Shown here piece by piece: positions 1,211 through 15,563 of a stretch of DNA of 17,985 nt (position 1 is the first letter of the stretch; every line of letters starts with the position of its first letter). The stretch spans positions 1 through 17,985 of the forward strand of contig JBDRUH010000027.1 of NCBI GenBank assembly GCA_039801225.1, given 5' to 3'. Source of the stretch: a candidate division WOR-3 bacterium. Lineage in GTDB: Bacteria > Hydrothermota > Tepidihabitantia > Tepidihabitantales > Tepidihabitantaceae. Both the position numbers and the translations under genes were made by a program. The notes below the pieces were generated by a model. It was not told the DNA's origin. It searched no databases and saw only the letters and a program-made list of their open reading frames with translations.

Positions 1211-4080
1211 AGAGAATAGTAGTTCCAAAGTCAAATCTCCAAAGCCAAATCTCAAATTTGGCTTTTGGCTTTTGGCTTTTGGCTTTGCTCTGTAGCGCCG
1301 CCTTGGCAGGTGTTACCGGCACAATCCGGGGGCGGGTAACCGATAAGAAGACTGGTGAACCACTAATCGCGGTTAATGTAATAGTGATTGGCACCGAGTT
1401 GGGCGCGGCTACCGATGCGAACGGAGTTTATGAGATTATCAATGTTCCGCCAGGGAGATATAAACTAACCGCTTCTTATGTAGGTTATCAGGAGATGACC
1501 GTAAGCGATGTCCTGGTGGTGCAGGACAATGTTACCGTGGTTGATTTTAAGTTAAGCCCAACGGTGATTGAGGTCGGACCGGTGGAGGTGAAGGCAGAGC
1601 GACCGTTGGTTAACCGGGGACAGGTTACGGTGGAGCGGGTGCTCACCGATGAGGAGTTCAAACGGCTGCCGGTGGTTCAGCTTTCGGAACTGGTCGGTAT
1701 GCAGGCGGGTGTAACCCAGAGCGCCGGTGGCGGCTGGACCCATATCCGGGGTGGTAGATATGACGATGTTGCTTATCTGGTTGATGGCGTTGCTGCCCAG
1801 GATGCGGTGGTGGGAACCCTATGGTCAAGCCCGAGACCAACTTCGGACGCACTTTCTTCGGTGGTGGTGATTACCGGCGGATTTGATGCGGAATATGGCT
1901 CGGCGATGTCCGGGATTATTAAGGCGGTAACCAAGGAGGGCGGTGGTAATCTATCCGGACGGGTACGGTATTTGACTGATGAGGTGTTTCCCAAACCGGA
2001 TTTGAACTTCGGTTATAATCGGTTGACATTTTCTTTAGGCGGTCCAACACCTTTGTGGAATCGGTTGCGGTATTTTATCTCTACGGAGTATTATAAGACC
2101 GATGATGACCGTAACTGCCTTTATAAGGTCCCGGCACCGCGGGGGGAGTATGCGGTAGAAGGTAAGTTGACGCTGCAGATGCCAAAGGGGTTCTTCTTGA
2201 CCCGCGAGGGGTTGAAGTTGACGCTGGATGGTCATCACTCTAACTATCAGTGGCAGGCTTTCGGGCACGCCTGGAGGTTCTGGCAAAGAGGTCTTTATGC
2301 CAACCGGGTGCGGTCTTATAAGGCAAACTTAACTCTAAACCATATGCTTGCTCCTGATCTGCTCTATGAGGCGAAGATTGGCTGGTTTTCTACCTCTTTG
2401 ATTAGAACGGTGCGGAATTTTTATGCCGAACAGGCGGACACAACCGGATTCTGGGGATTTTTGCGCCGGAGTGGTATCTGGGACCGCTATATATTCCGGG
2501 CTGAGGACTGGGTGTTTAATAATCCGGAGGGGCTGTCAAAGAAGGAGGCGGTAAAGCAGCTGTGGCGTTCTTACTGGCTCAGTCCGAATGGGGATACGGT
2601 CTATGCCCATCCCGGTGGTAAAAACTTCACCCAGGCTTATGCTTTAATTGACAATCCGTATGGCGTCCCCGGTCTGTTTGTTACTGAGGGTGATAACCGG
2701 ACCTGGCATTATCGCTCAACTGAGGATATCCTGTTTAAGTTTGACCTTACCAAGACCGTCTCCAAGATTCACGAACTGAAGACCGGTCTGGACATCACTC
2801 AGTATTCGGTCTCAATGTATGATAATTCCCTGCCCTGGGACCAGAACCCGTTCTGGGATGCGTATAACTATAAGCCTCTGGTGGCGGCGGCATATGTTCA
2901 GGACCGGGCAGACTTTGAGGACCTGGTGGTGCGTGCCGGGGTGCGGTTTGACTATCTTGACGCCAAGGCGAAGGTCCGGGCGTTTCCCGAGTCTCTGGGC
3001 GCCACACCAGAGATTGCTGATAGTTTCATACCGGTGGCGCCGAAGTTTCGGCTCTCGCCAAGGCTGGGAATTTCCTATCCGATTACTGAGCGGGTGAAGT
3101 TCCGTTTCTCCTACGGGCATTTCTTTAAGAACCCGGTTTTTGCCAATCTTTATGAGTATGGTGAGCGTTCGGCAGCGGAGTTGCGCGGGCGGGGAAACAT
3201 CATCGTCGGTAACCCGAATATGAGCGCCGAGAAGACCATCGCCTATGAGTTGGGTTTTGATGCCCAGTTGACCGATATCTTTGCCTTTGACCTTACCGCC
3301 TTCTATAAGGATGTCTTTGACCTTTCCGGTGTTCGTCCGGTCCCAGCCCTGCCCCAGCCCTATACGATGTATTACAATGTGGAGTATGCCCGGATTCAGG
3401 GGTTTGAGGCAACGATGACCAAGGCGCTTTTTAACTACTGGTCGGCTCAGTTAGGCTACACATTCTCCATCGCCAAAGGCACCGCATCAACCGCAACCGA
3501 CCAGTATCAGCGGACCACACCCCTGCAGGTTGACTATTACCTTGACCATGACCAGCGCCACTCACTCCACGGCAACATCGGCTGTGCTTTCCCCAATGAC
3601 TTTGCGTTTGTGCCGCTGCGCGATTTTAACGCCTCGGCGGTGGCTTCATACGCCTCCGGTTTACCCTACACACCAACGAATATTAAAGGGGAGCGAACCG
3701 GACCGGAAAATTCCGCCCGGATGCCGGCAACTTTCACCATTGATACGAGGTTAGCAAAGGACTTCAAAGTGGGTGGTCTTACTCTCTCGTTGAATTGTGA
3801 TATTTCCAATCTGCTTAATACCAAGGTGGTTGCCAGCGTCTATTCGGCGACCGGTAAGCCCGATTACGATGGTAGACTGATTACACCACAGGAGTTTTCC
3901 GGTGGACTTTTGTTTGGCGACCCTTACTATCATCCAGCACGAGACTACAATCACGATGGGTATATCACTCAATTTGAAATGTTTCATTCTTATATGCGGG
4001 CGCGGGAGTACTATATGAAAGCACCCACCTACTATGGTCCGTCGCGGAAAATCCGGATTGGCATTAGCCTGTCGTTTTAA
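1207..4080 (+). CDS. TonB-dependent receptor with N-terminal carboxypeptidase-regulatory-like domain (957 aa from ATG 1207)
   Basis: AAGGAGG at 1194-1200; signal peptide ending ALA; GTIRGRVTD...GEPLIAVNV...TASYVGY domain; plug motifs HIRGGR, YLVDG, GGFDAEYG; barrel strands; C-terminal Phe (IGISLSF). Confidence 0.93.
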   Translation: MKRIVVPKSNLQSQISNLAFGFWLLALLCSAALAGVTGTIRGRVTDKKTGEPLIAVNVIVIGTELGAATDANGVYEIINVPPGRYKLTASYVGYQEMTVSDVLVVQDNVTVVDFKLSPTVIEVGPVEVKAERPLVNRGQVTVERVLTDEEFKRLPVVQLSELVGMQAGVTQSAGGGWTHIRGGRYDDVAYLVDGVAAQDAVVGTLWSSPRPTSDALSSVVVITGGFDAEYGSAMSGIIKAVTKEGGGNLSGRVRYLTDEVFPKPDLNFGYNRLTFSLGGPTPLWNRLRYFISTEYYKTDDDRNCLYKVPAPRGEYAVEGKLTLQMPKGFFLTREGLKLTLDGHHSNYQWQAFGHAWRFWQRGLYANRVRSYKANLTLNHMLAPDLLYEAKIGWFSTSLIRTVRNFYAEQADTTGFWGFLRRSGIWDRYIFRAEDWVFNNPEGLSKKEAVKQLWRSYWLSPNGDTVYAHPGGKNFTQAYALIDNPYGVPGLFVTEGDNRTWHYRSTEDILFKFDLTKTVSKIHELKTGLDITQYSVSMYDNSLPWDQNPFWDAYNYKPLVAAAYVQDRADFEDLVVRAGVRFDYLDAKAKVRAFPESLGATPEIADSFIPVAPKFRLSPRLGISYPITERVKFRFSYGHFFKNPVFANLYEYGERSAAELRGRGNIIVGNPNMSAEKTIAYELGFDAQLTDIFAFDLTAFYKDVFDLSGVRPVPALPQPYTMYYNVEYARIQGFEATMTKALFNYWSAQLGYTFSIAKGTASTATDQYQRTTPLQVDYYLDHDQRHSLHGNIGCAFPNDFAFVPLRDFNASAVASYASGLPYTPTNIKGERTGPENSARMPATFTIDTRLAKDFKVGGLTLSLNCDISNLLNTKVVASVYSATGKPDYDGRLITPQEFSGGLLFGDPYYHPARDYNHDGYITQFEMFHSYMRAREYYMKAPTYYGPSRKIRIGISLSF
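1224..1286. repeat. Inverted heptamer array inside the signal peptide of the TonB receptor
   Basis: TCCAAAG TCAAATC TCCAAAG CCAAATC TCAAATT (1224-1258) followed by (TTGGCTT)x4 (1258-1285); AAAGCCAAA 1241-1249 pairs with TTTGGCTTT 1257-1265. Confidence 0.9.
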
Positions 4081-4089
4081 GGAGGAAGA

Positions 4090-7000
4090 ATGAACCCAAA
4101 AGTAAGAATGAGTAGAGTAGGGCACAGCCGACAGCCGACAGTCGTCAGCCGATTCCAAAATGCAAACCTGAAGGTTTGCCCTACCTTACTAATGTTACTT
4201 CTGATATTAACCAGTTTTTCCTGGGCTAAAACCGCTGCACCGGTTAAAGGCGCAAAGCGAATCTATGATATGAAGTGGCTGAACATCAACCGCTGGAGTT
4301 GTCCATTTTACAACGATGGACGATATGGCATTGATGTTACCATAGGAACCGGGCAGGCGGGTGGTTCCTGGCCACAACCGCTGAGAAATTTCTACATTTT
4401 CGGTGCCGGGATGTGGTTTGGTTCACTTAAACCGAGGGGTGATGGCAAGATAGATACGCTGGTCTCATTTGGCTACAACCCAAACTCTGGTGGAACTGAG
4501 CTGACGCCAACATTGTGCAGGTATGCCGGGGAGGGAGCGGGTAATCCCGACGACCGAATTTTTGTCTATCCAGGTGATTGGCCACCAAGTCCACGCAGTC
4601 GGTGGGAGACCGGTGACCCGAAATTGGATAGCGTTCTGATACCTTATGAGGCGTTTTCCCTCCAGGATATGTGGTGTGTTTATTCGGACGGTGCACCAGA
4701 AAACCACATCGCTCCGGGTAAACCGCAAAACATTGATGTTTATCAGCTGGTTTATGCCTGGAACTACCCGGCGAATCAGGACATATTTTTTATAATTTAT
4801 AATGTCCGAAACTCCGGTAGCGACACGCTGAAACGATGCTATATTGGTGCGGTGATGGACCCGGATATCGGCGGCGCCAGTGATGATATGGTCGGGTTCA
4901 TTCTCAGTGATTTAATTCCTGGGGTTCCAGATACTGTTAAGAATGTTGGCTATGCCGGTGATAATGACAATGTGGAGAGCCCGGGTTCAACCTGGGAGTC
5001 CGGAACACCTGGTGTGGTTGCTTATAAGTTCCTGGACAGTCCAAAGCGGATAACTGCGACAGGAGAGACCGTCCCCTTGGGTATGACCGCATTCAAGAAG
5101 TTCACGATTGAGATTGACCCGGTTACCGACCCGGCGCAGTATCTGACAATGGCGGGCTATGATTACCGCAGTGGTGTTTATTCTGCTTACGACTCGGTTG
5201 ATATAACCCCAGCAGACAAGCGGTTCATCCAGTGTTCCGGTCCGTTTGATCTGGCACCGGGGCAGGTGGAGCGATTGGTTGTCGCGGCGATTGCCGCACC
5301 TTTCGGCGGTCCGAACCAGTCCTGGGCAAACCGTCCCAAGGATTCACTCATCCATCTGGCTAAAGTTGCCAATGCGGCGCAGTTTATTTACGACAACAAC
5401 TGGCTTCTGCCCGGACCACCACCTTCACCCAATATTACCCTGGTGCCCGGGGACAAACAGGTAAGGATCGTCTGGGATGACCTGCCGGAGCGGACACCAG
5501 ACCGGTACTGGGAAAAGGTGGCAAGATACCAGGGGACATCCGGTTATGACCCGAAATACCGTGGTTATGACTTCCAGGGATATATTGTTTATAAGTCGCG
5601 TGATGGCTCTAACTGGCAGATTATTGCCCAGTGCGACCTGGCAGATACCCTGCCAAAACCGGGCAGCGAGAGCCAGTGGCCCTATAAAGTGGAGATACCC
5701 GAGGTTGGGGGAGTTCCTACTGATACCATCTATTACTGGCCTATCGGTCGTGATGAGACTCAACCGGAAAGCCTGTGGCTCAGGATGAATAATAACGGTG
5801 TTTTCTACACATTTCTTGATAAGGATGTTATTAACGGCTATCAGTATTACTACTGTGTCTGCGCCTACGACTGGAATTATATTACCACCGATACCAACGC
5901 TCAGGGGCAGCCAATCGCCTGGGATACTTTAGTCCTGCGGTCCGGGATAGTGGCAAACTTTTCTACCGTGCCGCGCTGGGAGCCGGTGAACTATATCCCG
6001 CCGGGCGAGTGTCAGGTGGTGCGATTGAAGGGCGATGCGGAAAACAACGGGCTCTCCTTTTCTACCAAGGTGGTGGTGCCTTTCCAGGTTACCGGTGACA
6101 CCTTTGAACTGCGGTTTTTAGGACCGACCTGGAGCGGTGCCACCGATAGGTCAATATACTCCTATTATGTGGTGAACACCTCCAAGAATGAACTCCTAAC
6201 TGTGGATACCACATCCTTTGACTATACTGTTACCGCTTCTCCTAAGACAAAGTCGGTGAATGTTCCGGTATTCAATGGTCTGGCACTCACATTAAAACTG
6301 AAACTGGGCATTCCGAATGCGCCCTTTGATGCGGCGAGTGTGTTGATCGGACACTATCCTGCGGACTCGTTAAGAATCGGTGCCGCACCATCACAAGCCT
6401 ACTGGGCGTTCCGTGGTTCAGACTATCGGATTGAATGGATGAACAATAATGGGTATCTCACCGCCAAGGTATACGATGTAACCAATGGCGATATAGAAGT
6501 GCCTTACAGCCCATTTGGCACCCGGGATACAACAGGACAGAAGAAGGCGGATGGCTGGTGTTTCTTTGACTCCCGATTCAACCCAACCGACACGCTCAAA
6601 GGAACAGCAAAATTTTTATACATCTGCGGTGGTTTAATTCAGTTCCAGAAATCGGGCGACAGTCTGCGCAGTTTTATCAATTTGATTGAACCGGGTGATG
6701 TGTGGCTTTTGACCGGGCACCGGGCGGAAGGTTCAGCGCCATTCTATAATGTCTATCAGGTCATTCCAATCCCGGGTTATGCTGATACCACAACCAAGCT
6801 AACTCTGAATGTTAAGGTAGTTCCCAACCCCTATATTGTCTTCAACCCGTGGGAGAAGTCGTCAGAACAGCGCATCGTCAAATTCACCCATCTGCCCAAC
6901 ACCTGCACGATAAGAATCTTCACCATCTCCGGGGACCTGGTGAAGGTGATTGAGCACAAAGACACCAGGAAGCAACCACTGGATGAGGGGGGCACCGCAA

Positions 7001-7110
7001 CCTGGGATATGGTTAATGACTACGGGCAGTTAATCGCTTCAGGTGTATATATCTATCATGTGAAGTCGCCGGTGGGCGAGTGCACCGGTAAGTTGATGTT
7101 CATCCACTAA
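4090..7110 (+). CDS. Large secreted protein with FN3-like region and T9SS-type/FlgD-like C-terminal domain (1006 aa)
   Basis: AAGGAGG at 4079-4085; signal peptide ending SWA; PPPSPNITLVPGDKQVRIVWD...FQGYIVYKS; C-terminal VKVVPNPY...TIRIFTISGDLVK...WD...IASGVYIYHV. Confidence 0.85.
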   Translation: MNPKVRMSRVGHSRQPTVVSRFQNANLKVCPTLLMLLLILTSFSWAKTAAPVKGAKRIYDMKWLNINRWSCPFYNDGRYGIDVTIGTGQAGGSWPQPLRNFYIFGAGMWFGSLKPRGDGKIDTLVSFGYNPNSGGTELTPTLCRYAGEGAGNPDDRIFVYPGDWPPSPRSRWETGDPKLDSVLIPYEAFSLQDMWCVYSDGAPENHIAPGKPQNIDVYQLVYAWNYPANQDIFFIIYNVRNSGSDTLKRCYIGAVMDPDIGGASDDMVGFILSDLIPGVPDTVKNVGYAGDNDNVESPGSTWESGTPGVVAYKFLDSPKRITATGETVPLGMTAFKKFTIEIDPVTDPAQYLTMAGYDYRSGVYSAYDSVDITPADKRFIQCSGPFDLAPGQVERLVVAAIAAPFGGPNQSWANRPKDSLIHLAKVANAAQFIYDNNWLLPGPPPSPNITLVPGDKQVRIVWDDLPERTPDRYWEKVARYQGTSGYDPKYRGYDFQGYIVYKSRDGSNWQIIAQCDLADTLPKPGSESQWPYKVEIPEVGGVPTDTIYYWPIGRDETQPESLWLRMNNNGVFYTFLDKDVINGYQYYYCVCAYDWNYITTDTNAQGQPIAWDTLVLRSGIVANFSTVPRWEPVNYIPPGECQVVRLKGDAENNGLSFSTKVVVPFQVTGDTFELRFLGPTWSGATDRSIYSYYVVNTSKNELLTVDTTSFDYTVTASPKTKSVNVPVFNGLALTLKLKLGIPNAPFDAASVLIGHYPADSLRIGAAPSQAYWAFRGSDYRIEWMNNNGYLTAKVYDVTNGDIEVPYSPFGTRDTTGQKKADGWCFFDSRFNPTDTLKGTAKFLYICGGLIQFQKSGDSLRSFINLIEPGDVWLLTGHRAEGSAPFYNVYQVIPIPGYADTTTKLTLNVKVVPNPYIVFNPWEKSSEQRIVKFTHLPNTCTIRIFTISGDLVKVIEHKDTRKQPLDEGGTATWDMVNDYGQLIASGVYIYHVKSPVGECTGKLMFIH
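4117..4184. repeat. GTAG-type REP-like element containing a CAGCCGA heptamer array, in frame in the signal-peptide n-region
   Basis: Terminal inverted GTAGGGCA (4117-4124) / TGCCCTAC (4177-4184); hairpin GCAAACC-TGAA-GGTTTGC (4162-4179); CAGCCGA CAGCCGA CAGTCGT CAGCCGA (4125-4152). Confidence 0.8.
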
Positions 7111-7122
7111 GGGAGGTTAAAA

Positions 7123-8205
7123 ATGAAGTCAAAAGTCAAAAGTCAAGTTAAGGAAATGCGGAATGCGAAATGCGGAATACGGATGATGGTTTTGGGACTC
7201 CTGGTCCTTTTCACTCTCTCCTGGGCAACTTTTAATAAGGTGGCAACGACCGGTGCTTCGTTTTTGAAAATCAGTGTTGGACGGGCATCGGGTATGGGTG
7301 ATGCCTTTACCGCGCTGGCTGATGACGCATCGGCGGGGTACTTTAATCCCGCGGGTCTGGCATATATCACCAGGCAGGCACAGTTTGAGCACGCCAACTG
7401 GTTTGCCGATGTGAATCATGACTTCCTCACCGTCGTGTTGCCGGTTACCAATTTTGGCACGATTGCCTTTTCCGCAACCGCGGTTACAATGGGCGAAATA
7501 GAGCAAACCACGGTTGATGACCCGGCAACGCCGGCAAGGGAGGATGAAGGCACCGGGCTCTTGATCGGTGCTAATGACTTGGCGGTTGGCATCTCCTACT
7601 CGCGGATAATTACCGATAAACTTTCGTTTGGACTCACGGTAAAGGGGGTCCAGGAGAACATCTGGGATTTGTCCGCGCAGGCGATGGGCGTTGACCTCGG
7701 TCTATTTTATAATACTGGTTTCAAGTCGCTCCGCCTCGGCACCGCGGTTACCAATTTCGGCACCCAACTGGCATTTAGCGGTCCGCATCTGGACTTCACC
7801 TTCTCCTGGCCCGACTCCGGCCCCAGTCAGTTACAGGGTTCTTACAAAACCACTCCAGCACCCCTTCCCACCACCTTCCGTTTCGGGGTGGCGATGGACT
7901 TAATAAAGGACGAAAACAACCGGTTGACCGCGGCGATTGATTTGGTTCACCCTTCAGACATCAATGAGACGGTGAATATCGGACTGGAGTATTGCCTGGC
8001 GGATATGCTTTCTCTCCGGGGTGGGTATATCCTGAATACTGACCAGGAGTATCAGAAAAAGATAGACTCACGTACCGGGCTCTGTGCCGGCGTCGGCATC
8101 AAGGGAAAGCCAACCCCGGCATTGGAGTTATCGCTGAACTACGCCTTCCGTTACTATGAGTTCATCAAACCGACCCATCGCCTGATGCTCACAGTTGGTT
8201 TCTAA
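7123..8205 (+). CDS. PorV/PorQ (UPF0164)-family outer-membrane beta-barrel protein
   Basis: GGGAGG at 7111-7116; ASFLKISVGRASGMGDAFTALADDASAGYFNPAGL motif typical of PorV/FadL-like barrels; C-terminal Phe (LTVGF). Confidence 0.87.
   Translation: MKSKVKSQVKEMRNAKCGIRMMVLGLLVLFTLSWATFNKVATTGASFLKISVGRASGMGDAFTALADDASAGYFNPAGLAYITRQAQFEHANWFADVNHDFLTVVLPVTNFGTIAFSATAVTMGEIEQTTVDDPATPAREDEGTGLLIGANDLAVGISYSRIITDKLSFGLTVKGVQENIWDLSAQAMGVDLGLFYNTGFKSLRLGTAVTNFGTQLAFSGPHLDFTFSWPDSGPSQLQGSYKTTPAPLPTTFRFGVAMDLIKDENNRLTAAIDLVHPSDINETVNIGLEYCLADMLSLRGGYILNTDQEYQKKIDSRTGLCAGVGIKGKPTPALELSLNYAFRYYEFIKPTHRLMLTVGF
7126..7182. repeat. Two heptamer arrays immediately after the start codon
   Basis: (AAGTCAA)x3 at 7126-7146; AATGCGG AATGCGA AATGCGG AATACGG at 7155-7182; encodes KSKVKSQ...MRNAKCGIR. 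Confidence 0.9.
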
Positions 8206-8218
8206 TCCTCGGAAAAGG

Positions 8219-10369
8219 ATGCGGGGAATAGGGGGATGGTGCGCCATCCCCCTATTCTGGTTAATAACGGTTGCCTTCAGTGCCCAGTGGACAATCGGCG
8301 TTTATATGTGCGCAGACAACGGAATGAATGAGCAGGCGAACTCTGACATTGCCGAGATGATGGCGGTTGGCTCCAGTGGCAGTGTGAACATTGTTGTTCA
8401 GGTTGATTATGCCGCCTGGGACACAAACCCTTCCTGCCGGCGGTATTATATCAAGAAGAATCAAAAGGAACTCCTTGCCGACCTGGGTGAAGTGGATATG
8501 GCGGACAGCGCTACCCTCGCCGACTTCATCGCCTTCTTAAAAAAATCCTTTCCTGCCCGTAACTATTTCCTTATCATCTGGGACCATGGTAATGGCTGGC
8601 GCGCCGGATATGGTCCGAGGAGGGCGGTTGTCATTGACGAGTCCCACAGCCATATGATGGGTGTTGCCGGAGGAGAACTTGCCAGCGCCCTGAGGTTGGG
8701 GAAAAAGATGTTAGGCAGGAAAATTACCGTATTAGGGTTTGATGCCTGCCTGATGGGCTCAATTGAGGTTGCGACCGAGGTTATGGATTATTGCGACTAT
8801 CTTCTGGCATCAGAAGGGCTGGTAGGATGGGAAGGGTTTCCCTATGACGATTTCTTCGGCAAAATTGTGGCGAATCCTGCCGTAACCACTGAGGAACTTC
8901 TGAAAGAAATGTGTGCCGACTACGGGAAACGAAATTCTGGTGAAGATGTCTGCCTCTCGGCAATATTTCTGCCGCAATTGCCCCGGGTGATTAACCGAAT
9001 CAATGCTTTATGCTCCACACTTTCGGCTGTCGGCGATTTGCGGCTGGCTCGGGAACGGGTCCAGACATTTGGCATTGATGCCTCCCGACCGCCGGCGGTT
9101 ACCGATGAACAGATAGATTTCATTCACTTCTGGCAACTGGTGCCATCGGCTGGGGGCTGTGGGCTGTCAGCCGTCGCCCCGCTACTTTCTGCCCTTGACT
9201 CCCTGATAATTGCCAATGCCGCTTATGGAGATTATCGCAACGCCCGGGGAGTTGCCGCCTGGTTTCCCTATCGCTATCTCAGTTTTAAGGCGAAGGCGGC
9301 TGAATACCAGGAACTCGTTTTTGCCGATTCCACACCCTGGCTCTGGTTTCTTAATAACTACTACTCCAGAGACGATGTGAAGCCAACCCAGCCAGAAATC
9401 CTTAATCACCGGACAGGAAATCGCAATGATATCCGGCTCTGGTGGAGTAAAAGTTATGATTTAGCACCGGTGACCTATATTTTATATCGGGTGACTGAAC
9501 CAGAGACAGTTTTTTTTGACTGTGCCGCAGACCTCAACAACTGGCAGACAGAAGGCTGGACTCTCTCCACCCGCTATTTTCACTCCGCCCCCTTTGCCTT
9601 TTTCTCGGGCTCGGCTGCCGGTCTCAATAGTGAATTGACTTTATGCGAACCGCTCAATCTACCTGCGGGTGGACTTCTCTCATTTTATGCCTGCTATCTC
9701 ACCGAAGAGGGTGAAGATTCGTTATCCAACCCGGTGCGGGATGTATGCTATCTTGAGTATTCCTCAGACCGCTCTAACTGGTTTCCTATGGACTCATTTT
9801 ACGGAACAAAGGAGTTCTGGGATGAGTTCCGGTATATTCTACCACCAGTGTCGCAGTTTTATCTCAGGTTTCGCTACCGGACCAACGGTGCTATCAACTA
9901 TCTCGGCGTCTTCATTGACGATTTGAAAGTTGAGCGGTTCTCAACCTCAACCTCAACCTCACCAGTAAAGGACACCACCTTTTACCTTTTTAACCTTCCC
10001 CGGGACACCACAGGGTATTACTTCCTCGTTGTTGGGGTTGATTCATTTGGCAATTTCTCCAGTGTTAGTGATTATTATCAAGTTAAAATTAAAACATTTG
10101 CCGAGCCTTATACCCGACCGGCGCCATTTGCTGACCGATGCAAAATCGTTCTGGACTTCCCGGAGGAAGAAAATCCCGATGTTTTAATCTTTACCCTTTC
10201 TGGCACTCTCGTCAAACGGTTTCACCGGGTTACCAGCCAGGAGATAGATTGGGATGGCAGGCAGGAGCGGGGTAAGGAAATTGCTGACGGGGTTTATATT
10301 GTTGTGGTTAAGGGGAGGAATTTCAGGAAAATTGGTAAGATTGCCAAAGTTCGCACATCTTGGATTTAG
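8219..10369 (+). CDS. Secreted clostripain-family (peptidase C11) cysteine protease with C-terminal beta-sandwich domains and T9SS/FlgD-like CTD
   Basis: WTIGVYMCADN N-terminal motif; catalytic His in IIWDHG and Cys in GFDACLM; CTD IFTLSGTLVK...WDGR...IADGVYIVVV; ATG 8219 preferred over TTG 8195 (start uncertain). Confidence 0.88.
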   Translation: MRGIGGWCAIPLFWLITVAFSAQWTIGVYMCADNGMNEQANSDIAEMMAVGSSGSVNIVVQVDYAAWDTNPSCRRYYIKKNQKELLADLGEVDMADSATLADFIAFLKKSFPARNYFLIIWDHGNGWRAGYGPRRAVVIDESHSHMMGVAGGELASALRLGKKMLGRKITVLGFDACLMGSIEVATEVMDYCDYLLASEGLVGWEGFPYDDFFGKIVANPAVTTEELLKEMCADYGKRNSGEDVCLSAIFLPQLPRVINRINALCSTLSAVGDLRLARERVQTFGIDASRPPAVTDEQIDFIHFWQLVPSAGGCGLSAVAPLLSALDSLIIANAAYGDYRNARGVAAWFPYRYLSFKAKAAEYQELVFADSTPWLWFLNNYYSRDDVKPTQPEILNHRTGNRNDIRLWWSKSYDLAPVTYILYRVTEPETVFFDCAADLNNWQTEGWTLSTRYFHSAPFAFFSGSAAGLNSELTLCEPLNLPAGGLLSFYACYLTEEGEDSLSNPVRDVCYLEYSSDRSNWFPMDSFYGTKEFWDEFRYILPPVSQFYLRFRYRTNGAINYLGVFIDDLKVERFSTSTSTSPVKDTTFYLFNLPRDTTGYYFLVVGVDSFGNFSSVSDYYQVKIKTFAEPYTRPAPFADRCKIVLDFPEEENPDVLIFTLSGTLVKRFHRVTSQEIDWDGRQERGKEIADGVYIVVVKGRNFRKIGKIAKVRTSWI
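8226..8257. other. Perfect 14-bp hairpin (terminator-like or mRNA-stabilising) overlapping the clostripain 5' end
   Basis: GAATAGGGGGATGG-TGCG-CCATCCCCCTATTC, 20 nt after the PorV-family stop; no strong U-tract. Confidence 0.75.
9146..9180. repeat. NNGGCTG heptamer array in frame within clostripain
   Basis: TCGGCTG GGGGCTG TGGGCTG TCAGCCG TCGCCCC; encodes SAGGCGLSAVAP; reverse complement of the CAGCCNN family. Confidence 0.6.
9940..9963. repeat. Hexamer array (CTCAAC)x3 + CTCACC encoding the STSTSTSP linker
   Basis: Direct reading of the sequence; lies at a domain boundary after FIDDLKVERF. Confidence 0.75.
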
Positions 10370-10422
10370 AACATTTGGGGCTTGGAATTTGTTTGGAATT
10401 TAGGATTTCAGATTTAGAGTTT
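10358..10422. repeat. Degenerate ATTTNGN heptamer array filling the convergent intergenic gap
   Basis: ATTTAGA 10364-10370, ATTTGGG GCTTGGA 10373-10386, GTTTGGA ATTTAGG ATTTCAG ATTTAGA 10391-10418. Confidence 0.8.
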
Positions 10423-11031
10423 CTCCCCGGATGTGAAGATGATTACAATCAACCTGATGAATGTCTTCAGGAGTATCTTCAGGTCTAAGAAGAAGGAACG
10501 GTTTCGGACATAATCAATCTGAAGTTTGGTTTTTTTCGGCAGGACCACCTCAACATAACTTTTTTCCGGATCGGGACTCTCTCTTAGAATACCTTCTTCC
10601 TGGCTATATAATGTTGCCAGGTCGGTAAGACCAGGGCGAACAGTTAAAATGATGTCCCTCTCCTCTTTCGGTATGAGGTCAATAAACATCTTTATTTCCG
10701 GTCTTGGACCAACAAAGCTCATCTCCCCTTTTAAAATGTTAAAAAGTTGGGGCAGTTCATCCAGTTTGTGCCTTTTTAAAAACCTGCCAGTTTTTGTTAA
10801 CCGGGGGTCGCCCTGTGCTGTTACCGAACTTCCCAATCGCTCCGCATCCGGCACCATAGTCCGGAACTTGATGATTTTGAATGTTTTGCCAGATCTGCCC
10901 ACCCTTTCACCGTAATAAAAGACCGGTCCCCGGGAGGTCAATTTAATGGCAAAGGCGATCAGTGCCAGTAATGGCAAAAGTAAAATTATGCCGATGAGGG
11001 AAAGGGTAATGTCAAAAAGTCGCTTTAGCAT
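10414..11031 (-). CDS. Bacterial sugar transferase (initiating polyprenyl-phosphate phosphoglycosyl transferase)
   Basis: MLKRLFDI start; KFRTM, DPRLTKTGRFLKRHKLDELPQLFNILKGEMSFVGPRPE and RPGLT motifs; ATG 11031 preferred over 11070. Confidence 0.93.
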   Translation of the reverse strand: MLKRLFDITLSLIGIILLLPLLALIAFAIKLTSRGPVFYYGERVGRSGKTFKIIKFRTMVPDAERLGSSVTAQGDPRLTKTGRFLKRHKLDELPQLFNILKGEMSFVGPRPEIKMFIDLIPKEERDIILTVRPGLTDLATLYSQEEGILRESPDPEKSYVEVVLPKKTKLQIDYVRNRSFFLDLKILLKTFIRLIVIIFTSGEKL

Positions 11032-11995
11032 AAAAGGACCGGCAGATTTTTTCTTGTTGCAGAAGAACATTGGTTTTGTGGATTAAGGTATTTTTGGGGA
11101 AAAGGGCTTGGGCGGCTTTTAAGATGTTGCGGAGTGGAAAGGCAACCTTCAGGCACAACCGAAGTGGAAAAGAATAGAGTATGTTGAGCCGGCAGTGAAG
11201 CCGGGTAAAGCCGAACTTTCGCTCAAGGAACTCTTGAATATTGGTGTCGTGGGCAATGGAGCGTTCGCCGTTAATTACCAGCCGAAAGTTACGCTCGTTG
11301 AGATAATGGTCAATGATGGTCCAAATCAAAAGATACCCTGGTGAGTATTGCCGATTGAGATAGTCCGGGTGGTATTTAATCACCGAGGTGGTGGCGGTGC
11401 GGGCAAGGATGATGCATTCGCAGTAGCCGATCAGTTTTTCCTCAGCAAAAACGCCCCAGAATTCAAAGAAAGGGAATTTTTCCTTTTGCTCAAGGAGACT
11501 GGTATAGGTCTCTCTGTCTAAACCTTTCGTGTAACGATATCTTTTGAATGCGGAAAGATATACTTCATAGCCATTTTCTAAAAGAAATTCAGGTTTTATT
11601 TTTTCAACATAACACCTGTTGAGACCCCTCCTGACTTCATTTCTGACCTTTTTACTCAAGGTGGCAAAGGAAGCGGGCGGGGTGGCCACGAGCCACCACC
11701 ACCCGGTCTCTCTGGCGGTAAAACTGTCCCACCATCTTAAAAATGGCACCCGGGCGGTTTCAAGCAAATTTTCTAATTCCCTTAAGGAAAACTGCGGGGG
11801 TTCGTAGGGAATGGGTATTGCCGGGCGAAGCGCGCCCTGATATTTAACCCAGGGGAAATCGCCGAGGTAATAAACCTCCTGGCTCTCCTGGAGAAATTTA
11901 ATATATCCCTTTATATCCTCCTCTTTTTTGAGGTCATTCCAGGTCCTGTGCCAGACGAACAGCCCCCCAGCCCCCAGCCAGCAGCCACCAGCCAT
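11012..11995 (-). CDS. GNAT/FemAB-like acyltransferase-fold protein of a glycan cluster
   Basis: LSKKVRNEVRRGL motif and YSPGYLLIWTIIDHY segment resembling GNAT/FemAB-type proteins; ATG one base after the upstream TAA. Confidence 0.55.
   Translation of the reverse strand: MAGGCWLGAGGLFVWHRTWNDLKKEEDIKGYIKFLQESQEVYYLGDFPWVKYQGALRPAIPIPYEPPQFSLRELENLLETARVPFLRWWDSFTARETGWWWLVATPPASFATLSKKVRNEVRRGLNRCYVEKIKPEFLLENGYEVYLSAFKRYRYTKGLDRETYTSLLEQKEKFPFFEFWGVFAEEKLIGYCECIILARTATTSVIKYHPDYLNRQYSPGYLLIWTIIDHYLNERNFRLVINGERSIAHDTNIQEFLERKFGFTRLHCRLNILYSFPLRLCLKVAFPLRNILKAAQALFPKNTLIHKTNVLLQQEKICRSFYAKATF
11960..11995. repeat. CAGCCNN heptamer array beginning at the start codon
   Basis: CAGCCCC-C-CAGCCCC CAGCCAG CAGCCAC CAGCCAT; the last unit contains the minus-strand ATG; encodes MAGGCWLGAGGL. 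Confidence 0.8.
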
Positions 11996-11996
11996 T

Positions 11997-13046
11997 TTAG
12001 TTCTCAGGTTTCAGACTCAACAGCCGGATTAGACCCCAGATTGAGCCAAGTCCGTAGCCAAAATGCCGGGCGCCGAAGGCTATGGGCATAATAAAAAAAA
12101 GTCTAATGTCATTATTTTTGATGGCGATTATACAGGAGAAGTAAAGGCTGAGCAAGAGATACAGCCCCCAGGCCAAAAGCCAGAATTTAAAACCAAAAAC
12201 CCAGAGGAGGAGAAGAGAGATTACGAGAAGGAGGGGAAGATAGTGGCGCAATTTGAAAGGTGTTCTGGTGAATTTAAAAGCGAAAATCGTCCAGAAACCG
12301 TCCTGGAAGTTGTGTTTAAAAAACTGGGTCAATTTTGCCTTAGGGTAGTAGCAGGCGATTATTTCCGGCACCAGAAGGATTTTGCCTCCTGCCTTCTTTA
12401 AGCGGATATTGAACTCTAAATCCTGTGCCCTTAAAAGGTTTTCATTAAACAGACCGATCTTCTCAAAAACCGTTCTTTTATAACAGCCGCCGAATACAGT
12501 GTCAACCCACTTAGGTTTCCCGGCATAGCCCCTTCGGTAATAGGCATCTCCGGCGGCAAATATGGATGATGTGGCAAAGAGAATGGCTTTATTTTGCAGG
12601 GTGTTTTCTCTTGGCATCACCCGCCATATCCCACCGACACAAAGGAATTCGGAATTCGGAATTCGGAATTCCGAAAATTCCGCCTGCCGCCTGCCGTCTG
12701 CCACTCCCGTAAGGTATTGCACACATCTAGTGATATATTCCGGGTGATAGGTGGCATGGGCATCCATTCGGATAATTATTTCACCCCGGGCGTTTTTGAT
12801 GCCAGTATTCAAGGCACAGGGGGTTGTTTTTTTGGGGTTATCAAGCAATTTTATAAAATGATATTTCTTTGTATACTCTTCAACAATCTCTCTGGTTTTA
12901 TCCTCGCTCATTCCATCAACGACAATCACTTCCATATTTTCCTTAGAATAGTCCTGAAAGAGGATGGAGTCTAAACACATCCGGATAAGACCTTCTTCAT
13001 TCCGGCAGGGGATAATTACTGAAACGAAAGGTTGAGGTTGAGTCAT
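11997..13046 (-). CDS. Family 2 glycosyltransferase (ExoA-like) with C-terminal TM helices
   Basis: VSVIIPCRNE, VVDGMSED, IIRMDAH, VDTVFGGCY and AQDLEFN motifs. Confidence 0.92.
   Translation of the reverse strand: MTQPQPFVSVIIPCRNEEGLIRMCLDSILFQDYSKENMEVIVVDGMSEDKTREIVEEYTKKYHFIKLLDNPKKTTPCALNTGIKNARGEIIIRMDAHATYHPEYITRCVQYLTGVADGRRQAEFSEFRIPNSEFLCVGGIWRVMPRENTLQNKAILFATSSIFAAGDAYYRRGYAGKPKWVDTVFGGCYKRTVFEKIGLFNENLLRAQDLEFNIRLKKAGGKILLVPEIIACYYPKAKLTQFFKHNFQDGFWTIFAFKFTRTPFKLRHYLPLLLVISLLLLWVFGFKFWLLAWGLYLLLSLYFSCIIAIKNNDIRLFFIMPIAFGARHFGYGLGSIWGLIRLLSLKPEN
12172..12206. repeat. Degenerate heptamer array in a GT2 membrane segment
   Basis: GCCAAAA GCCAGAA TTTAAAA CCAAAAA CCCAGAG; the minus strand encodes LWVFGFKFWLLA and resembles the T-rich arms at 1258 and 14491. 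Confidence 0.45.
12644..12701. repeat. Compound heptamer array inserted in frame in the GT2 catalytic domain
   Basis: (GGAATTC)x4 at 12644-12671, then CGAAAATTC, then CGCCTGC CGCCTGC CGTCTGC at 12681-12701. Confidence 0.92.
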
Positions 13047-13070
13047 AACCTTAATCTTATCCTTAACCTC
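13030..13070. repeat. Inverted hexamer array spanning the GT4 stop, intergenic gap and GT2 start
   Basis: (GGTTGA)x2 at 13030-13041; TAACCT TAATCT TATCCT TAACCT at 13046-13069. Confidence 0.75.
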
Positions 13071-14295
13071 TGAACCATTGTAGGAGTGTATTTGCTATCT
13101 TGCCGATTTCAAACTCCTCCGCTATTCTCTTTCGGCCTTCATCAGACAGCCGTCTGGACTCAGGAGGGTCGGTTATTAACCTTAAAATTGCACCCACCAG
13201 GGCTTCGGCAGATTTTTCCGGAACCAAAATTCCAGAACCTTGAGATACAAGTTCCATAATTCCACCAGTTTTAGTGGAAATAACCGGAACTCCGAAAGCC
13301 ATCGCCTCCATTAAGGTAACAGGAATGCCCTCCTTATCACCATCAGGAGTAACAATGCTGGGCATTATCACCGCATCTATCGCCCCCTTTTTTAGCATTG
13401 CCATAAGTTCGGAATGGGGCAGAAACCGGACAAAAGTGATACTGTTCTCAAGACCCAGTTTGGCAACCTGTCGGCGCAGTTCCTTTTCCATAGGTCCTTC
13501 ACCAATTAAGAGACAGTGAATATTACCCCACCCCTGACTTTTCAATATGCCGATGGCTTCTATGAGAAACTTCTGTCCTTTCTTGGGAATAAAATCTCCC
13601 GGGCAGGCAATAACAAATCGGCGGTCGGCTTCTTGTTCTCGGCTTTGGGCTGTGGGCTGCAGGTTTACACCGATGTGAATCACTTTCACCTTCTCCTGAT
13701 ACTTCTCGCTGATAAGTGCCAGTAAATCCCGGCGGCCATCTTCTGCGATACATCTGACAAAGGCGGACGATGCCACTTTTACTTCAAGGAGGTTATTTTC
13801 GTTAATATCCCAGCGGTGGAGCGTAATGCTGTAAGGGATATGGGTGAGTTTTGCGATTATCCAACCAATCGTAGCGGTGGTGGAACCCCAGTGGGTGTGG
13901 ATGTGGTTAATACCTTTTTTCTTTAATAATGCGGCGAGGAAAACGGCCTTAGGGAAAACAGCGAGGTTCTTTAAGGCGATTTTTAAGTTGCGGGAGTGGG
14001 AGAAGTTTATTCTAATGAGCTTAGAGATAAGCGGATCTTTTGTTATGCTCTTAAGGAAATAAGTTAATATTTCCCAGTTTAGAAGTGGCAGATTGATTGT
14101 CAAGGGCAGAAGCGTCTCAGCCTCTTTATGGAAGACCTTCGGGGGCGGGTTGCGGGGCACAATAGTAAGGTCAACGCCGAGGTTTAATAGTGCCAGCATC
14201 TCTTCTATGATAAAAGTTTCCCGTTTGCCAAAAGGAGCACAGGCGGTGATGTAGGCAACCGACAGCCGACCGCCGATTGAGGAGGGGGTAGCCAC
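13063..14295 (-). CDS. Family 4 (GT-B) glycosyltransferase, WcaL-like
   Basis: AYIT...ETFI..E, HIHTHWG, KKG, and DKEGIPVTLMEAMAFGVPVIST (E-x7-E) motifs; GTG start. Confidence 0.9.
   Translation of the reverse strand: MATPSSIGGRLSVAYITACAPFGKRETFIIEEMLALLNLGVDLTIVPRNPPPKVFHKEAETLLPLTINLPLLNWEILTYFLKSITKDPLISKLIRINFSHSRNLKIALKNLAVFPKAVFLAALLKKKGINHIHTHWGSTTATIGWIIAKLTHIPYSITLHRWDINENNLLEVKVASSAFVRCIAEDGRRDLLALISEKYQEKVKVIHIGVNLQPTAQSREQEADRRFVIACPGDFIPKKGQKFLIEAIGILKSQGWGNIHCLLIGEGPMEKELRRQVAKLGLENSITFVRFLPHSELMAMLKKGAIDAVIMPSIVTPDGDKEGIPVTLMEAMAFGVPVISTKTGGIMELVSQGSGILVPEKSAEALVGAILRLITDPPESRRLSDEGRKRIAEEFEIGKIANTLLQWFRG
13616..13659. repeat. NNGGCTN heptamer array in the GT4 inter-domain linker
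   Basis: TCGGCGG TCGGCTT CTTGTTC TCGGCTT TGGGCTG TGGGCTG; the minus strand encodes QPTAQSREQEADRR. Confidence 0.7.
14256..14278. repeat. CAGCCGA-type heptamer triplet near the GT4 start
   Basis: CAACCGA CAGCCGA CCGCCGA TT; the minus strand encodes IGGRLSV. Confidence 0.65.
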
Positions 14296-14301
14296 TCCTG
14301 G

Positions 14302-14329
14302 ATTTTCCCGATATTTTTAGCTCAGTCAA
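14302..14329 (-). promoter_or_regulatory. Putative sigma70 promoter for the glycan operon
   Basis: Minus strand TTGACT (14329-14324), 16 bp, GAAAAT (14307-14302), 6 nt, GTG at 14295. Confidence 0.45.
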
Positions 14330-14411
14330 GCCAGTAAAAGAGACACAGACGGGCGCCAGCCTGTAAATGCTTGGTAAATCTTAACTTGCCAAATCAAAAA
14401 ATGTAATTTTC

Positions 14412-14439
14412 TTGACTTTAATTTTCCTCCGGCTATTCT
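14412..14439 (+). promoter_or_regulatory. Putative sigma70 promoter for the DJ-1/dtd/yicC/gmk operon
   Basis: TTGACT (14412-14417), 16 bp, TATTCT (14434-14439), 7 nt, ATG at 14447; no Shine-Dalgarno. Confidence 0.6.
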
Positions 14440-14446
14440 TTTTATT

Positions 14447-15094
14447 ATGAGAATTGGCTGGTTAGCGGTCCAAAATCTAAAATCTAAAATTTTTGGATTC
14501 TGGGTTTTGGGTTTTTGCTTATGGCTTATGGCTTATGGCTTTTGTCCTTCGGCGGAAGCGGACTCTGCCCAGTCGGTCGCGGTATTTTTGCCCCAGACTT
14601 TTTTCCGGGACGACGAGTTTCAGACAGTAACAATGGCGCTGGAAAAAGCCGGTTTTAATGTTGTTGTAACAGCGGCGGAAACAACTGTAGTAAAGGGGAT
14701 TGATGGTCTTCTGGTTAGACCCCAGCGACTGTTAAGAGATATTTCACCGCAGGGGTTTGTCGGACTGGTGCTCATCAATGGCCCTGGTGCCGCGGTTTAC
14801 TGGGATGATAAGGAGTTGCATAAAATCTGTCAAGAGTTTGTCTCGGCGGAAAGGGTGGTGGCGGCAATTGGCACTTCGCCAATTATCCTGGCAAAAGCGG
14901 GTGTCCTTTCCGGGAAAAAGGCAACCGCCTTTCCTGACCGCCGCACCATTACCATCCTTAAGGAAAACGGCTGCCAATATCGTTTCGGTCCAGTAGTCCG
15001 CGATGGGAACATCCTTACTGCCAACAGGTCAGAGAACTGCTTTGCCTTTGTTAGGGCGTTAATAAAGATGCTTACCGCCCGATTGCCAGGCTAA
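14447..15094 (+). CDS. DJ-1/PfpI-family protein with N-terminal signal peptide; nucleophile Cys replaced by Gly
   Basis: [35 protein letters not shown] and [10 protein letters not shown] motifs; AEA|D signal-peptidase-like site. Confidence 0.85.
14470..14546. repeat. Inverted heptamer array encoding the DJ-1 signal peptide
   Basis: CCAAAAT CTAAAAT CTAAAAT (14470-14490), then TTTTGGA TTCTGGG TTTTGGG TTTTTGC (TTATGGC)x3 TTTTGTC (14491-14546). Confidence 0.92.
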
Positions 15095-15101
15095 GAAAGG
15101 G

Positions 15102-15563
15102 ATGAGGGCGCTAATCCAGCGGGTGACAGAGGCACAGGTGACGGTAGTGGGTGAGACTGTGGGCGAAATCGGACCCGGTTTAGTAATTTTCCTCGGGTTG
15201 GGAAAGAAGGATAATGAGGAGACCTGCCGGCAGATGGCATCAAAGATTGCCCGGTTGCGTATCTGGGAAGACGAGGCGGGTAAGATGAACCGGTCACTGT
15301 TAGATACTGGTGGTTCAGCGTTGGTCGTGTCTCAATTTACCCTGTACGCCGATACCGAGCATGGCAATAGACCTTCATTCTCCAACGCCTGTGAGCCGGA
15401 GCGTGCCCGGGAACTTTATGAGCGATTTGTTGAGGAGTTGCGGTATCTTGGCATACGGGTTCAAACCGGTAAATTTGGCGCCCGGATGATGGTGAAACTG
15501 GTTAACTCTGGTCCGGTGACAATAATGCTTTGTTCTGAAGGCAGGGAGGATAAGGAGAAATAG
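15102..15563 (+). CDS. dtd: D-aminoacyl-tRNA deacylase
   Basis: [30 protein letters not shown] and NSGPVT motifs. Confidence 0.96.

Follow-up and report, generated by a model that had tools for sequence, protein, structure and literature searches.

Short heptanucleotide arrays and small dispersed palindromes in the genes and spacers of a candidate division WOR-3 bacterium

The heptameric simple sequence repeats of Nostoc and Xanthomonas are the closest described relatives of the short heptanucleotide arrays analysed here. The arrays lie in contig C27 (JBDRUH010000027.1, positions 1 to 17,985; this whole 17,985-nt stretch is referred to as the window) of a candidate division WOR-3 bacterium, whose genome assembly (GCA_039801225.1, here G000) comprises 1.50 Mb in 72 contigs and is 88.8% complete; the window sequence is also present in hot-spring metagenome runs. 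Heptameric short tandemly repeated repetitive (STRR) sequences were reportedly described by Mazel in 1990, and Nostoc punctiforme is said (by Elhai and co-workers, in 2008) to carry small dispersed repeats (SDRs) of 21–27 nt, which are partly palindromic, variable in presence between relatives and embedded in tandem heptamers. For Xanthomonas, Rehm et al. (2015, PMC4692102) describe GGGAATC repeats in which four units are preferred, which lie within about 50 bp of starts and stops and which occasionally form inverted pairs; the STRR of Calothrix are cited there. The G000 arrays share with the STRR of Nostoc/Anabaena and with the Xanthomonas heptamers the period of 7, a genome-wide excess of heptamers over other long simple sequence repeats, the small number of units per array, the position close to starts and stops and the occasional inverted pair. 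The Nostoc and Xanthomonas heptamers, however, are mostly intergenic and of one unit type, whereas G000 has about 115 types and 208 of its 320 arrays are coding. The G000 arrays also differ in reaching into signal peptides and enzyme loops, in that most of their units have no G-quadruplex potential, and in that the host is a hot-spring bacterium. What is new here is the extent of the coding invasion, the in-frame palindrome modules and the link to a four-helix-bundle gene cassette.

We favour, with moderate confidence, the reading that the window is a hot spot of short heptanucleotide arrays and small dispersed palindromes, which occur genome-wide and act as selfish or neutral DNA filtered by selection. 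In this scheme new sites would receive modules through a process of the copy-and-paste or gene-conversion type, replication slippage would alter their copy number, and purifying selection would purge whatever breaks a gene. A preliminary description of the window, made from its letters alone, had proposed a dispersed system of period-7 arrays, and the counts bear this out. Of the 19 rows that Tandem Repeats Finder (TRF, score of at least 30) gives for the window, 13 have period 7; in 100 codon-shuffled windows the mean number of period-7 rows was 0.20 and the maximum 2. Ten of the 13 arrays listed at the outset were recovered by TRF (8/11 heptamer and 2/2 hexamer arrays); the other three, at 10358-10422, 12172-12206 and 14256-14278, fall below the threshold, though their top self-match is at lag 7 (0.48, 0.61 and 0.75, respectively). 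Genome-wide, 320 of the 817 TRF rows have period 7, compared with 15–30 in four Markov simulations and 14–31 in three codon-shuffled genomes. At a score of at least 40, periods 7, 14 and 21 make up 223 of 335 rows and periods 8–11 only 11. The hexamer excess is smaller (51 versus about 16 rows at a score of at least 30; 4 at a score of at least 40). Arrays typically contain 2–10 copies (median 3.6) of one of about 115 canonical unit types, which fall into a few related groups, and the top two types account for 61 of the 320 arrays; CAGCCGA-type units occur at 33 loci and GCCAAAA-type units at 28. The arrays are clustered, with a variance of 5.8 against a mean of 2.5 per 10-kb interval, and the density of 0.78 arrays per kb in the window is the highest among the 40 largest contigs.

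The positional figures rest on 1359 genes called with a simple dicodon and ribosome-binding site (RBS) model (91% coding), with no curated annotation. Intergenic DNA holds 34% of the arrays (123/361) in 9% of the genome, while gene interiors hold 37% (135/361) in 70%. A further 64/361 lie in the first 40 codons of genes (10.6% of the genome) and 39/361 in the last 40 (10.4%); 87/361 are found no more than 200 nt upstream of genes. Array coverage is 2% at -90 to -31 from starts, against a genome mean of 0.65%, drops to 0.85% over the RBS itself where this is strong, rises to 1.8–2.2% in the first 60 nt of genes, falls to 0.1–0.4% deeper inside and reaches 3.1% in the 30 nt after stops. The coverage profile around starts and stops thus confirms the suspected enrichment at gene boundaries. 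Counted by coding calls, 208 of the 320 arrays are in genes and 112 are intergenic, and the per-base density is still highest outside genes. The arrays concentrate in the least-constrained sequence: the spacers flanking the RBS, the first 20 or so codons, about 60 nt after the stop, C-terminal tails and surface loops. The preliminary count of seven genes in ten with an array within about 30 codons of the start holds if the hexamer array at 13046 and the sub-threshold array at 14256 are included; period-7 TRF rows alone give 5/10.

That the arrays are moved as modules is indicated by the palindromes. A 14-mer survey of G000 returned several small dispersed repeat families, A to E. The family A palindrome, GCAAACCTAAAGGTTTGCCCTAC, has 37 copies, one of them at 4162-4184 of the window; the copy numbers are 34 for C, 35 for D and 14 for E. 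The palindromes of A, C and D are 18–25 nt long and mostly intergenic (29/37, 28/34 and 30/35, respectively), and some copies are inverted doublets. Family B is a 25-nt palindrome with 10 copies, of which eight are in coding calls. CAGCCGA-type repeats are seen by eye in the flanks of nine of the ten listed copies, the exception being that at 7708 of contig C34. A period-7 TRF array is found within 50 nt of 8/10 family B copies, of 14–22% of the copies of A, C and D, and of 0/14 copies of E; the corresponding background rates are 3.6% over all positions and 9% over intergenic ones. Six family B copies are read in one frame, giving an RPNRAPDSG-like peptide within TADS...RQPT; the proteins are unrelated, a P-type ATPase and an Hdr-like enzyme among them. 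An ANLKVCPT-like peptide from a palindromic repeat occurs in four proteins. Since family B is embedded in CAGCCGA arrays at unrelated loci, these elements are not the product of local slippage, and modules have been copied to new sites. Identical composite elements at many loci thus substantiate the earlier suggestion of a dispersal that goes beyond slippage.

Several described systems resemble these palindromes in part. The 25-nt palindrome inside CAGCCGA arrays recalls in layout the SDRs reported for Nostoc; unlike them, 8/10 copies are coding. In size, in copy number (34–37), in their mostly intergenic position and in their occasional inverted doublets, palindromes A, C and D resemble repetitive extragenic palindromic (REP) sequences and REPINs; unlike the REP/REPIN-RAYT systems, G000, at 88.8% completeness, has no match to the Y1_Tnp transposase domain (PF01797). 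Tandem heptamers are not given as a feature of REPINs in the part of Bertels and Rainey (2011, PMC3116915) that was available. The addition of the same peptide to unrelated and intact genes (RPNRAPDSG-like in six, ANLKVCPT-like in four) is a likeness of layout, and not of homology, to the Rickettsia palindromic elements. These are reportedly (Ogata and colleagues, 2000) 100–150 nt long and inserted in frame in unrelated genes, housekeeping genes included, with the host gene left intact; they are longer than the G000 palindromes and are not made of tandem heptamers.

Two kinds of repeat deserve separate mention. A palindrome, TTCTACCTATAGGTAGAA, has 14 copies outside the window (for example at C1:45734, C10:29816, C15:5203 and C3:50875), with flanks conserved over at least 50 nt on each side (taatacttttaaaatcaaggagatagccaataaaaaccc... 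/ ...ttttttgcgtggcaaaatag...); the copies are mostly intergenic, never adjoin heptamer arrays and may represent a MITE (miniature inverted-repeat transposable element), a regulatory site or a small RNA. Module chains of the form ...cccctcGGCTCCGTCATTCCGACCGAGCC - aacggcgagtggaggaatccc - TTCGCTCGGGGCAGGCTT... recur in fixed order in intergenic regions (for example C1:25948-26010, C28:5975-6065 and C71:3439-3500), often with A-rich heptamers on the 5' side. Their gtcattccgag...gaggaatc core presumably resembles repeats in many genomes of the FCB group and others.

Comparison with relatives indicates that the window arrays are lineage-specific insertions at the level of DNA. The nearest genomes compared share about 79–85% protein identity, and insertions were defined at the protein and not the nucleotide level; searches for close relatives of the window locus among genome contigs and among metagenome contigs each gave one relative, at 33% identity. 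At 1224..1286 (plus strand), TRF finds an inverted heptamer pair, an A-rich TCCAAAGCCAAATC unit in 2.1 copies followed by (TTTGGCT)x4.3, which makes up codons 6-27 of the TonB-dependent receptor gene 1207-4080. It encodes PKSNLQSQISN and LAFGFWLLAL, which lengthen the n-region of the signal peptide and supply some of its h-region, while 5/5 orthologues (68–85% identity) have ordinary short signal peptides and are array-free. A similar pair at 14470..14546 (plus strand; (AAAATCT)x2.7, then a TTTTGGC-like unit in 7.7 copies; TRF 14472-14544) forms codons 9-33 of the DJ-1/PfpI gene 14447-15094 and encodes QNLKSKI and 13 further residues, which stand in for the signal-peptide h-region; here too 5/5 orthologues have ordinary short signal peptides. 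The signal peptides of the receptor and of the DJ-1 protein are thus partly made of repeat DNA.

In the T9SS (type IX secretion system) cargo-like gene 4090-7110, a composite insertion at 4116..4185 (plus strand) consists of GTAGGGC, (ACAGCCG)x4.1 at 4124-4152, as called by TRF, and the palindrome GCAAACCTGAAGGTTTGCCCTAC at 4162-4184. It lies in the n-region, its peptide includes GHSRQPTVVSRFQNANLKVCPT, and the short signal peptides of 5/5 orthologues have about 24 residues fewer. A 3-nt insertion (GAG) is present at 4114, just 5' of the 4124-4152 array, in contigs of sequencing runs X1 and X2, an in-frame polymorphism within the signal-peptide n-region. The PorV-like gene 7123-8205 (Pfam PorV) carries two TRF arrays at 7126..7183 (plus strand), (AAGTCAA)x3.0 and (AATGCGG)x4.1, as its codons 2-21; they encode KSKVKSQ..EMRNAKCGIRM, which precedes the h-region, and are absent in 11/11 orthologues. 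At this site two relatives (G018 and G009) carry a different 14-nt repeat and two others (G023 and G015) another short repeat, so the same site was hit independently in different genera. The 14-nt repeat, in the PorV n-region of genus g10 (G018, G009; loci L008, L010), is TCCAATGACCAGA-like, and a related unit, AATGACC, is among the commonest heptamers of G004.

The remaining arrays of the window lie in enzyme genes and spacers. In the gene of the C11 (clostripain-family) peptidase, the plus-strand array at 9146..9180, (GGCTGTG)x2.9 (TRF 9148-9167), corresponds to a 6-residue insertion (GGCGLS) relative to 5/5 orthologues, while at the hexamer array 9940..9963 (plus strand; (CTCAAC)x3.7, encoding STSTSTS; TRF 9940-9961) the length is as in 5/5 orthologues and the sequence is swapped, FASLRRALT-type to FSTSTSTSP. 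On the minus strand, the glycosyltransferase family 2 (GT2) gene 11997-13046 has two TRF arrays at 12644..12702, (GGAATTC)x4.6 and (CCGCCTG)x3.3, within the GT2 domain, which form an exact 17-residue insertion (GVADGRRQAEFSEFRIP) relative to 3/3 homologues (38–42% identity). The degenerate GCCAAAA-type array at 12172..12206 of the same gene (minus strand; self-match of 0.61 at lag 7) encodes FGFKFWLLAWG in its C-terminal membrane part, where the homologues vary in length. The hexamer array at 13030..13070, (TAACCT)x4.0 with 77% matches (TRF 13046-13069; lag-6 self-match 0.66), crosses the start of the GT2 gene (13046) and the stop of the adjacent GT4 gene (13063). The GT4 gene, 13063-14295, for which only homologues of 27–29% identity were found, carries (GGCTGTG)x2.7 with degenerate flanks at 13616..13659 (minus strand; TRF 13641-13659; lag-7 self-match 0.57) and, as its codons 6-13, three degenerate CAGCCGA-type units at 14256..14278 (minus strand; below the TRF threshold; lag-7 0.75). 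A minus-strand array of CCAGCCA and CAGCCCC at 11960..11995 (TRF 11960-11994; lag-7 0.76) forms codons 1-12 of gene 11012-11995 (MAGGCWLGAGGL). The weakest of the arrays listed, at 10358..10422, is a degenerate period-7 stretch of GGAATTT/GGATTTA-like units below the TRF threshold, in the spacer of the convergent genes 8219-10369 and 10414-11070; its self-match of 0.48 at lag 7 compares with 0.40 at lag 8, and a summed contig depth of 63, against about 9 elsewhere in run X1, shows that its sequence is repeated in the sample.

As had been claimed, all host reading frames are open and the repetition is one of DNA and not of conserved protein: orthologues or homologues without the array were found for each window site compared. 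Since 7 and 3 share no factor, an array yields a single cyclic heptapeptide in whichever frame it is read: FWLLAFG for (TTTTGGC)n, KSQKPKA for its complement and TADSRQP for CAGCCGA. Given the same heptapeptide in every frame, only stop-free units in a benign orientation survive in genes. Accordingly, 158 of the 208 coding arrays are stop-free in both orientations, versus 50% of all heptamers, which upholds the proposal that selection retains tolerated arrays, and stops in both orientations are found in 33/112 intergenic arrays against 13% expected. Hydrophilic orientations are preferred, CAGCCGA being translated in its TADSRQP orientation in 24 cases and in the reverse one in 4. Units of the TADSRQP, KAEGGRR and KSQKPKA types persist in loops, tails and the n-regions of signal peptides, and units of the FWLLAFG type in signal-peptide h-regions and membrane segments.

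The preliminary description had also held that the arrays colonise envelope genes and spare housekeeping genes. This contrast is a local one. TRF indeed gives no row in the dtd-yicC-gmk-rpoZ-coaBC block (15102-17985), as had been stated; however, among 62 gene calls in four other hot spots, Pfam searches with the 29 array-bearing genes identified GcvH, a MutL-family protein, RmlD, a P-type ATPase, Omp85/TamB, MraW, a penicillin-binding protein (PBP), MurD, FtsW, MurC, MurB, FtsA, FtsZ, a PurM-like protein, LptC, CTP synthase (pyrG), IF-1 (infA), methionine aminopeptidase (map), archease and Hdr-like oxidoreductases, so that dcw-type genes, pyrG, infA, map and Hdr-like genes are all represented. 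The housekeeping block of the window is merely array-free locally, and genes of every functional class are hit genome-wide. In 10 of the 51 genes with an N-terminal array, the sole strongly hydrophobic N-terminal segment overlaps the array (30 versus 20 of 51). With arrays masked, a hydrophobic N-terminus is found in 20/51 of these genes and in 485/1145 others (p=0.77), which does not support an envelope bias.

RNA polymerase genes are among those reached. An array forms the tail of rpoB and the start of rpoC around their conserved overlapping stop and start, lengthening both the rpoB tail and the rpoC N-terminus in G000; the rpoB tail is 4–11 residues shorter in 26/29 relatives, and in the three g19 genomes it is of similar length and unrelated sequence. 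An array inside rpoB (TAESREPT) was considered as an insertion and rejected, as it amounts to a difference of only 3–4 residues within an older, family-wide variable insertion. That insertion, compared at G000 rpoB (L100:3400-3560) and L102-L130, comprises about 18 residues between EDMP(F/Y) and a PVD-MVLNPLGVPSRMN motif; it is common to 23/23 genomes of family f1, is found in none of 7/7 genomes of other families in the order, and is hypervariable in sequence.

The distribution of arrays among relatives is patchy. The closest genera to G000 in a tree of RpoB fragments (321 columns) are g2 and g3 (support 97/91), followed by g12. These three, sampled over 200–400 kb per genome, have 20–35 arrays per Mb and none at a score of at least 40, while the density is 213 per Mb in G000, 102 in G004 (g5) and 462 in G008 (g9). 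The probe (TTTTGGC)3, with at most one mismatch, matches 40 times in G000 (reversed control, 0) and occurs in 17/65 other genomes of the order, including 3/3 of g8, 10/11 of g9, 1/5 of g13 and 1/2 of g14; g22 and g23 have a single one-mismatch match each. At least three gains or losses are needed to place it on the RpoB tree. (CAGCCGA)3 is practically restricted to G000, with 15 matches there and three single ones in g9; reversal of this probe only rotates the repeat, which makes the control invalid. The 20 loci with TTTTGGC arrays that were inspected in G024 and G064 appear to be mostly non-coding.

No mobiliser gene had been seen in the window, and at 88.8% completeness there is no match in G000 to TIGR02436, TIGR04256 (GxxExxY), PF01797 (Y1_Tnp) or PF00078 (RVT_1); all-against-all clustering of the 1359 predicted proteins likewise returned no multi-copy transposase-like or mobile-element family. 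Loss of mismatch repair was considered as a cause and rejected, MutS being present (3 matches). In other genomes of the order the picture is different. Y1_Tnp is found in 15/17 genomes with (TTTTGGC)3 and in 13/48 without; TIGR02436 is found in 17/17 with and 25/48 without, and altogether in 42/66 genomes of the order, with 12–31 copies per genome in g9. These counts overstate independence because the genomes are kin. Proteins of PF05635/TIGR02436 resemble Avd, the accessory protein of diversity-generating retroelements (DGRs), and Xcc0516 of Xanthomonas campestris is the PF05635 representative with a solved structure, according to the accessible part of PMC10053308. That arrays flank such genes, as the preliminary description had it, proved true in relatives and does not apply to G000, which has no such gene. 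Among 36 four-helix-bundle genes in 11 relatives, period-7 arrays lie within about 200 nt on both sides of 18, on one side of 8 and on neither side of 10; 12 pairs of arms are reverse complements (at least 6 of 7 positions), with units that vary from copy to copy, and by simple arithmetic, even at the density of G008 fewer than 1% of genes would be expected to have arrays on both sides by chance. In one such cassette (G060), a TIGR02436 gene (L162:1455-1933, G060:C65) stands between (ACAGCTT)x4 and (AGCTGTT)x10.6. At the orthologous sites (compared loci L208-L211) the cassette is present in G063 and 3'-truncated in G061; the site consists of about 45 nt with one unit of each arm in G057, and of 80 nt without these arrays in G059. 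This appears to be a presence/absence polymorphism of the whole cassette. Among titles and the opening lines of abstracts, no paper on heptamer arrays flanking four-helix-bundle genes was found.

These cassettes raise the possibility, which we consider rather doubtful for G000 itself, that its arrays are remnants of a mobile cassette consisting of an Avd-like four-helix-bundle gene in a hairpin loop with inverted heptamer arms, of which G000 keeps gene-less, MITE-like inverted arrays and single arms. The spread would have taken place while the machinery was present, or with machinery supplied in trans from unassembled DNA; being a statement about origin, this is compatible with selfish or neutral arrays filtered by selection. 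In its favour are the 18/36 bracketed genes with their 12 inverted pairs, the filled, truncated and empty G060 sites, the presence of the gene in all 17/17 genomes with (TTTTGGC)3 against 25/48 without, and the finding that array density tracks gene number in 5/6 sampled genomes (31 genes and 462 arrays per Mb in G008, 9 and 102 in G004, 0 genes and 20–35 in G001, G002 and G011). Of the 33 array pairs of G000 that are separated by no more than 40 nt, 7 are inverted (random pairs, 5.5%), often with a shared loop such as CGATTTGAG, and the pairs at 1224-1286 and 14470-14546 have this gene-less inverted form. However, G000 itself has 213 arrays per Mb and 40 (TTTTGGC)3 matches and yet no four-helix-bundle gene, while relatives with more fragmented assemblies still show at least 16; most G000 arrays are single, 26/33 close pairs are not inverted, the related genomes do not give independent counts, and filled and empty sites fit insertion and palindrome-driven deletion alike. 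More broadly, we put forward as a tentative possibility that heptamer arrays are the arms of an undescribed mobile module, an Avd-like gene in a hairpin loop with copy-specific inverted arms, whose gene-less forms spread in the manner of MITEs. The stem-plus-ORF layout is that of the intervening sequences of 23S rRNA, the source of the family name. In the reduced genome of G000 the arms would have outlived the gene and would have been domesticated as signal-peptide n- and h-regions, tails and loops, even in core enzymes.

Explanations that give the arrays a function fare less well. It is unlikely that they act as functional hairpins or non-B structures at transcript ends, setting mRNA stability, RNase III processing or translation initiation, a role that has been proposed for REP elements and for the G-rich Xanthomonas heptamer repeats. 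Three of eight window segments do fold better than shuffles (z -2.1, -3.1 and -3.3): the hairpin at 1224..1286 (-27.1 kcal/mol, z -2.06), the long stem formed by the insertion 4116..4185 (z -3.07) and the hairpin at 14470..14546 (-29.8 kcal/mol, z -3.32, with 0/200 shuffles equally stable). Coverage peaks just 3' of stops and on either side of the RBS but not over it, inverted pairs are enriched, and the GGGAATC repeats are likewise placed within 50 bp of starts and stops in the accessible part of Rehm et al. (2015, PMC4692102). Against this, five of the eight segments fold no better than shuffles (7126..7183 has z +1.08), the great diversity of the units leaves no shared structure or motif, in sister genera the orthologues function without arrays, 208/320 arrays are within coding sequence, and Rfam gives 0 matches in the window at the gathering threshold. 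Among the sequencing runs that carry the window sequence, none is listed as RNA. Still less probable are simple-sequence contingency loci, in which the gain or loss of one 7-nt unit would switch envelope genes on or off. The period is not a multiple of 3, and genes of classic phase-variable classes (a TonB-dependent receptor, T9SS proteins, glycosyltransferases) carry window arrays in their 5' coding regions. In this they resemble the heptamers of the E. coli K1 neuO poly-psi repeat and of the H. influenzae hmw1/2 promoters, 7-nt units within the 5' coding sequence or the promoter of genes that modify the surface, which are reported in the accessible parts of PMC13001214 and PMC8262952 to mediate phase variation. 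In G000, unlike these, the short arrays number in the hundreds and reach all gene classes, with no sign of off-phase alleles. For neuO and hmw, switching by copy number has been demonstrated at single loci of many copies, while the median G000 array has 3.6 copies; arrays are equally found in essential genes where an off-switch would be lethal (the rpoB/rpoC junction, murB, murD, pyrG) and at infA, map and the neighbours of ftsA/ftsZ, and so are not confined to surface genes. One extra unit would join only 3/80 upstream arrays in frame to a start that has an RBS. A scan for genes split at arrays gave 14 arrays near gene ends where a change would fuse neighbouring frames, but these are ordinary gene junctions, the five inspected being normal adjacent genes. 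Gap-free contigs span 4124-4152 (runs X1, X2, X3), 7126-7183 (X1), 13641-14278 (X1) and 14470-14546 (X2), which is weak evidence, as contigs hide rare variants and the runs come from one study and may include the source sample. The Logan contigs break at most long arrays, several of the joints found are other loci with the same array, and they yield no copy-number spectrum. The view that the repeats are ancient conserved peptides selected for function, with a secondary DNA periodicity, is hardly credible. The encoded peptides do suit their location (charged n-regions, hydrophobic h-regions), but the segments are missing from the orthologues at each of the seven window sites compared, intergenic DNA contains the same units (112/320 arrays), and perfect copies at a 7-nt DNA period are not expected from selection on peptides; this view is already contradicted.

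Several points also weigh against our preferred reading of selfish or neutral modules filtered by selection. It leaves unexplained why the period is 7, and many arrays are perfect, which may point to selection for function, as would the significant folding of three of the eight window arrays, which fits a structural role. The lack of a transposase-like, reverse-transcriptase or four-helix-bundle gene in G000 leaves the seeding step without a candidate enzyme; the assembly is incomplete and the absence is not proof. There is no genome closer than about 79–85% protein identity from which to date the insertions or to place their boundaries at nucleotide level, and the gene calls and categories come from a simple in-house caller and not from curated annotation.

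The genes of the window are as follows. Pfam assigns a TonB-dependent receptor, a PorV-like protein, a C11 peptidase, a sugar transferase, GT2, GT4 and DJ-1/PfpI proteins and, in the 3' block, dtd, yicC, gmk and coaBC, together with a 97-aa open reading frame (ORF) that received no assignment. A 1006-aa protein without a Pfam domain matches Atlas clusters with the label 'T9SS type A sorting domain-containing', in which candidate division WOR-3 is the most frequent taxon; this is taken as a lead only. At 146-1210 there is an ORF of 354 aa with a strong RBS and no Pfam match, which shares 4 nt (ATGA) with the start of the receptor gene. Elsewhere in G000, a k-mer survey found a GTCCACTCCAGCACTAGGGTGGTAAAACCC-like sequence of about 30 nt in some 17–20 copies, which looks like a CRISPR repeat.

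Heptamer repeats, mainly known from heterocystous cyanobacteria and xanthomonads and never explained, thus extend to a deep-branching hot-spring lineage, and their patchiness between sister genera is a natural contrast for finding the cause. Here repeat DNA has turned coding: many proteins contain selfish short repeats inserted in frame, and some signal-peptide pieces consist wholly of them. For annotation, the arrays mislead start-codon calls and give apparent lineage-specific insertions in conserved proteins. The physical link of heptamer arrays to Avd-like genes, together with the filled and empty sites, provides a testable candidate for the missing machinery. Nostoc presumably also encodes members of the PF05635/TIGR02436 family. 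If heptamer arrays are indeed the arms of a mobile module, the unexplained heptamer excess of Nostoc and Xanthomonas would share its cause with that of G000, and the function of stand-alone Avd-like proteins would become testable.

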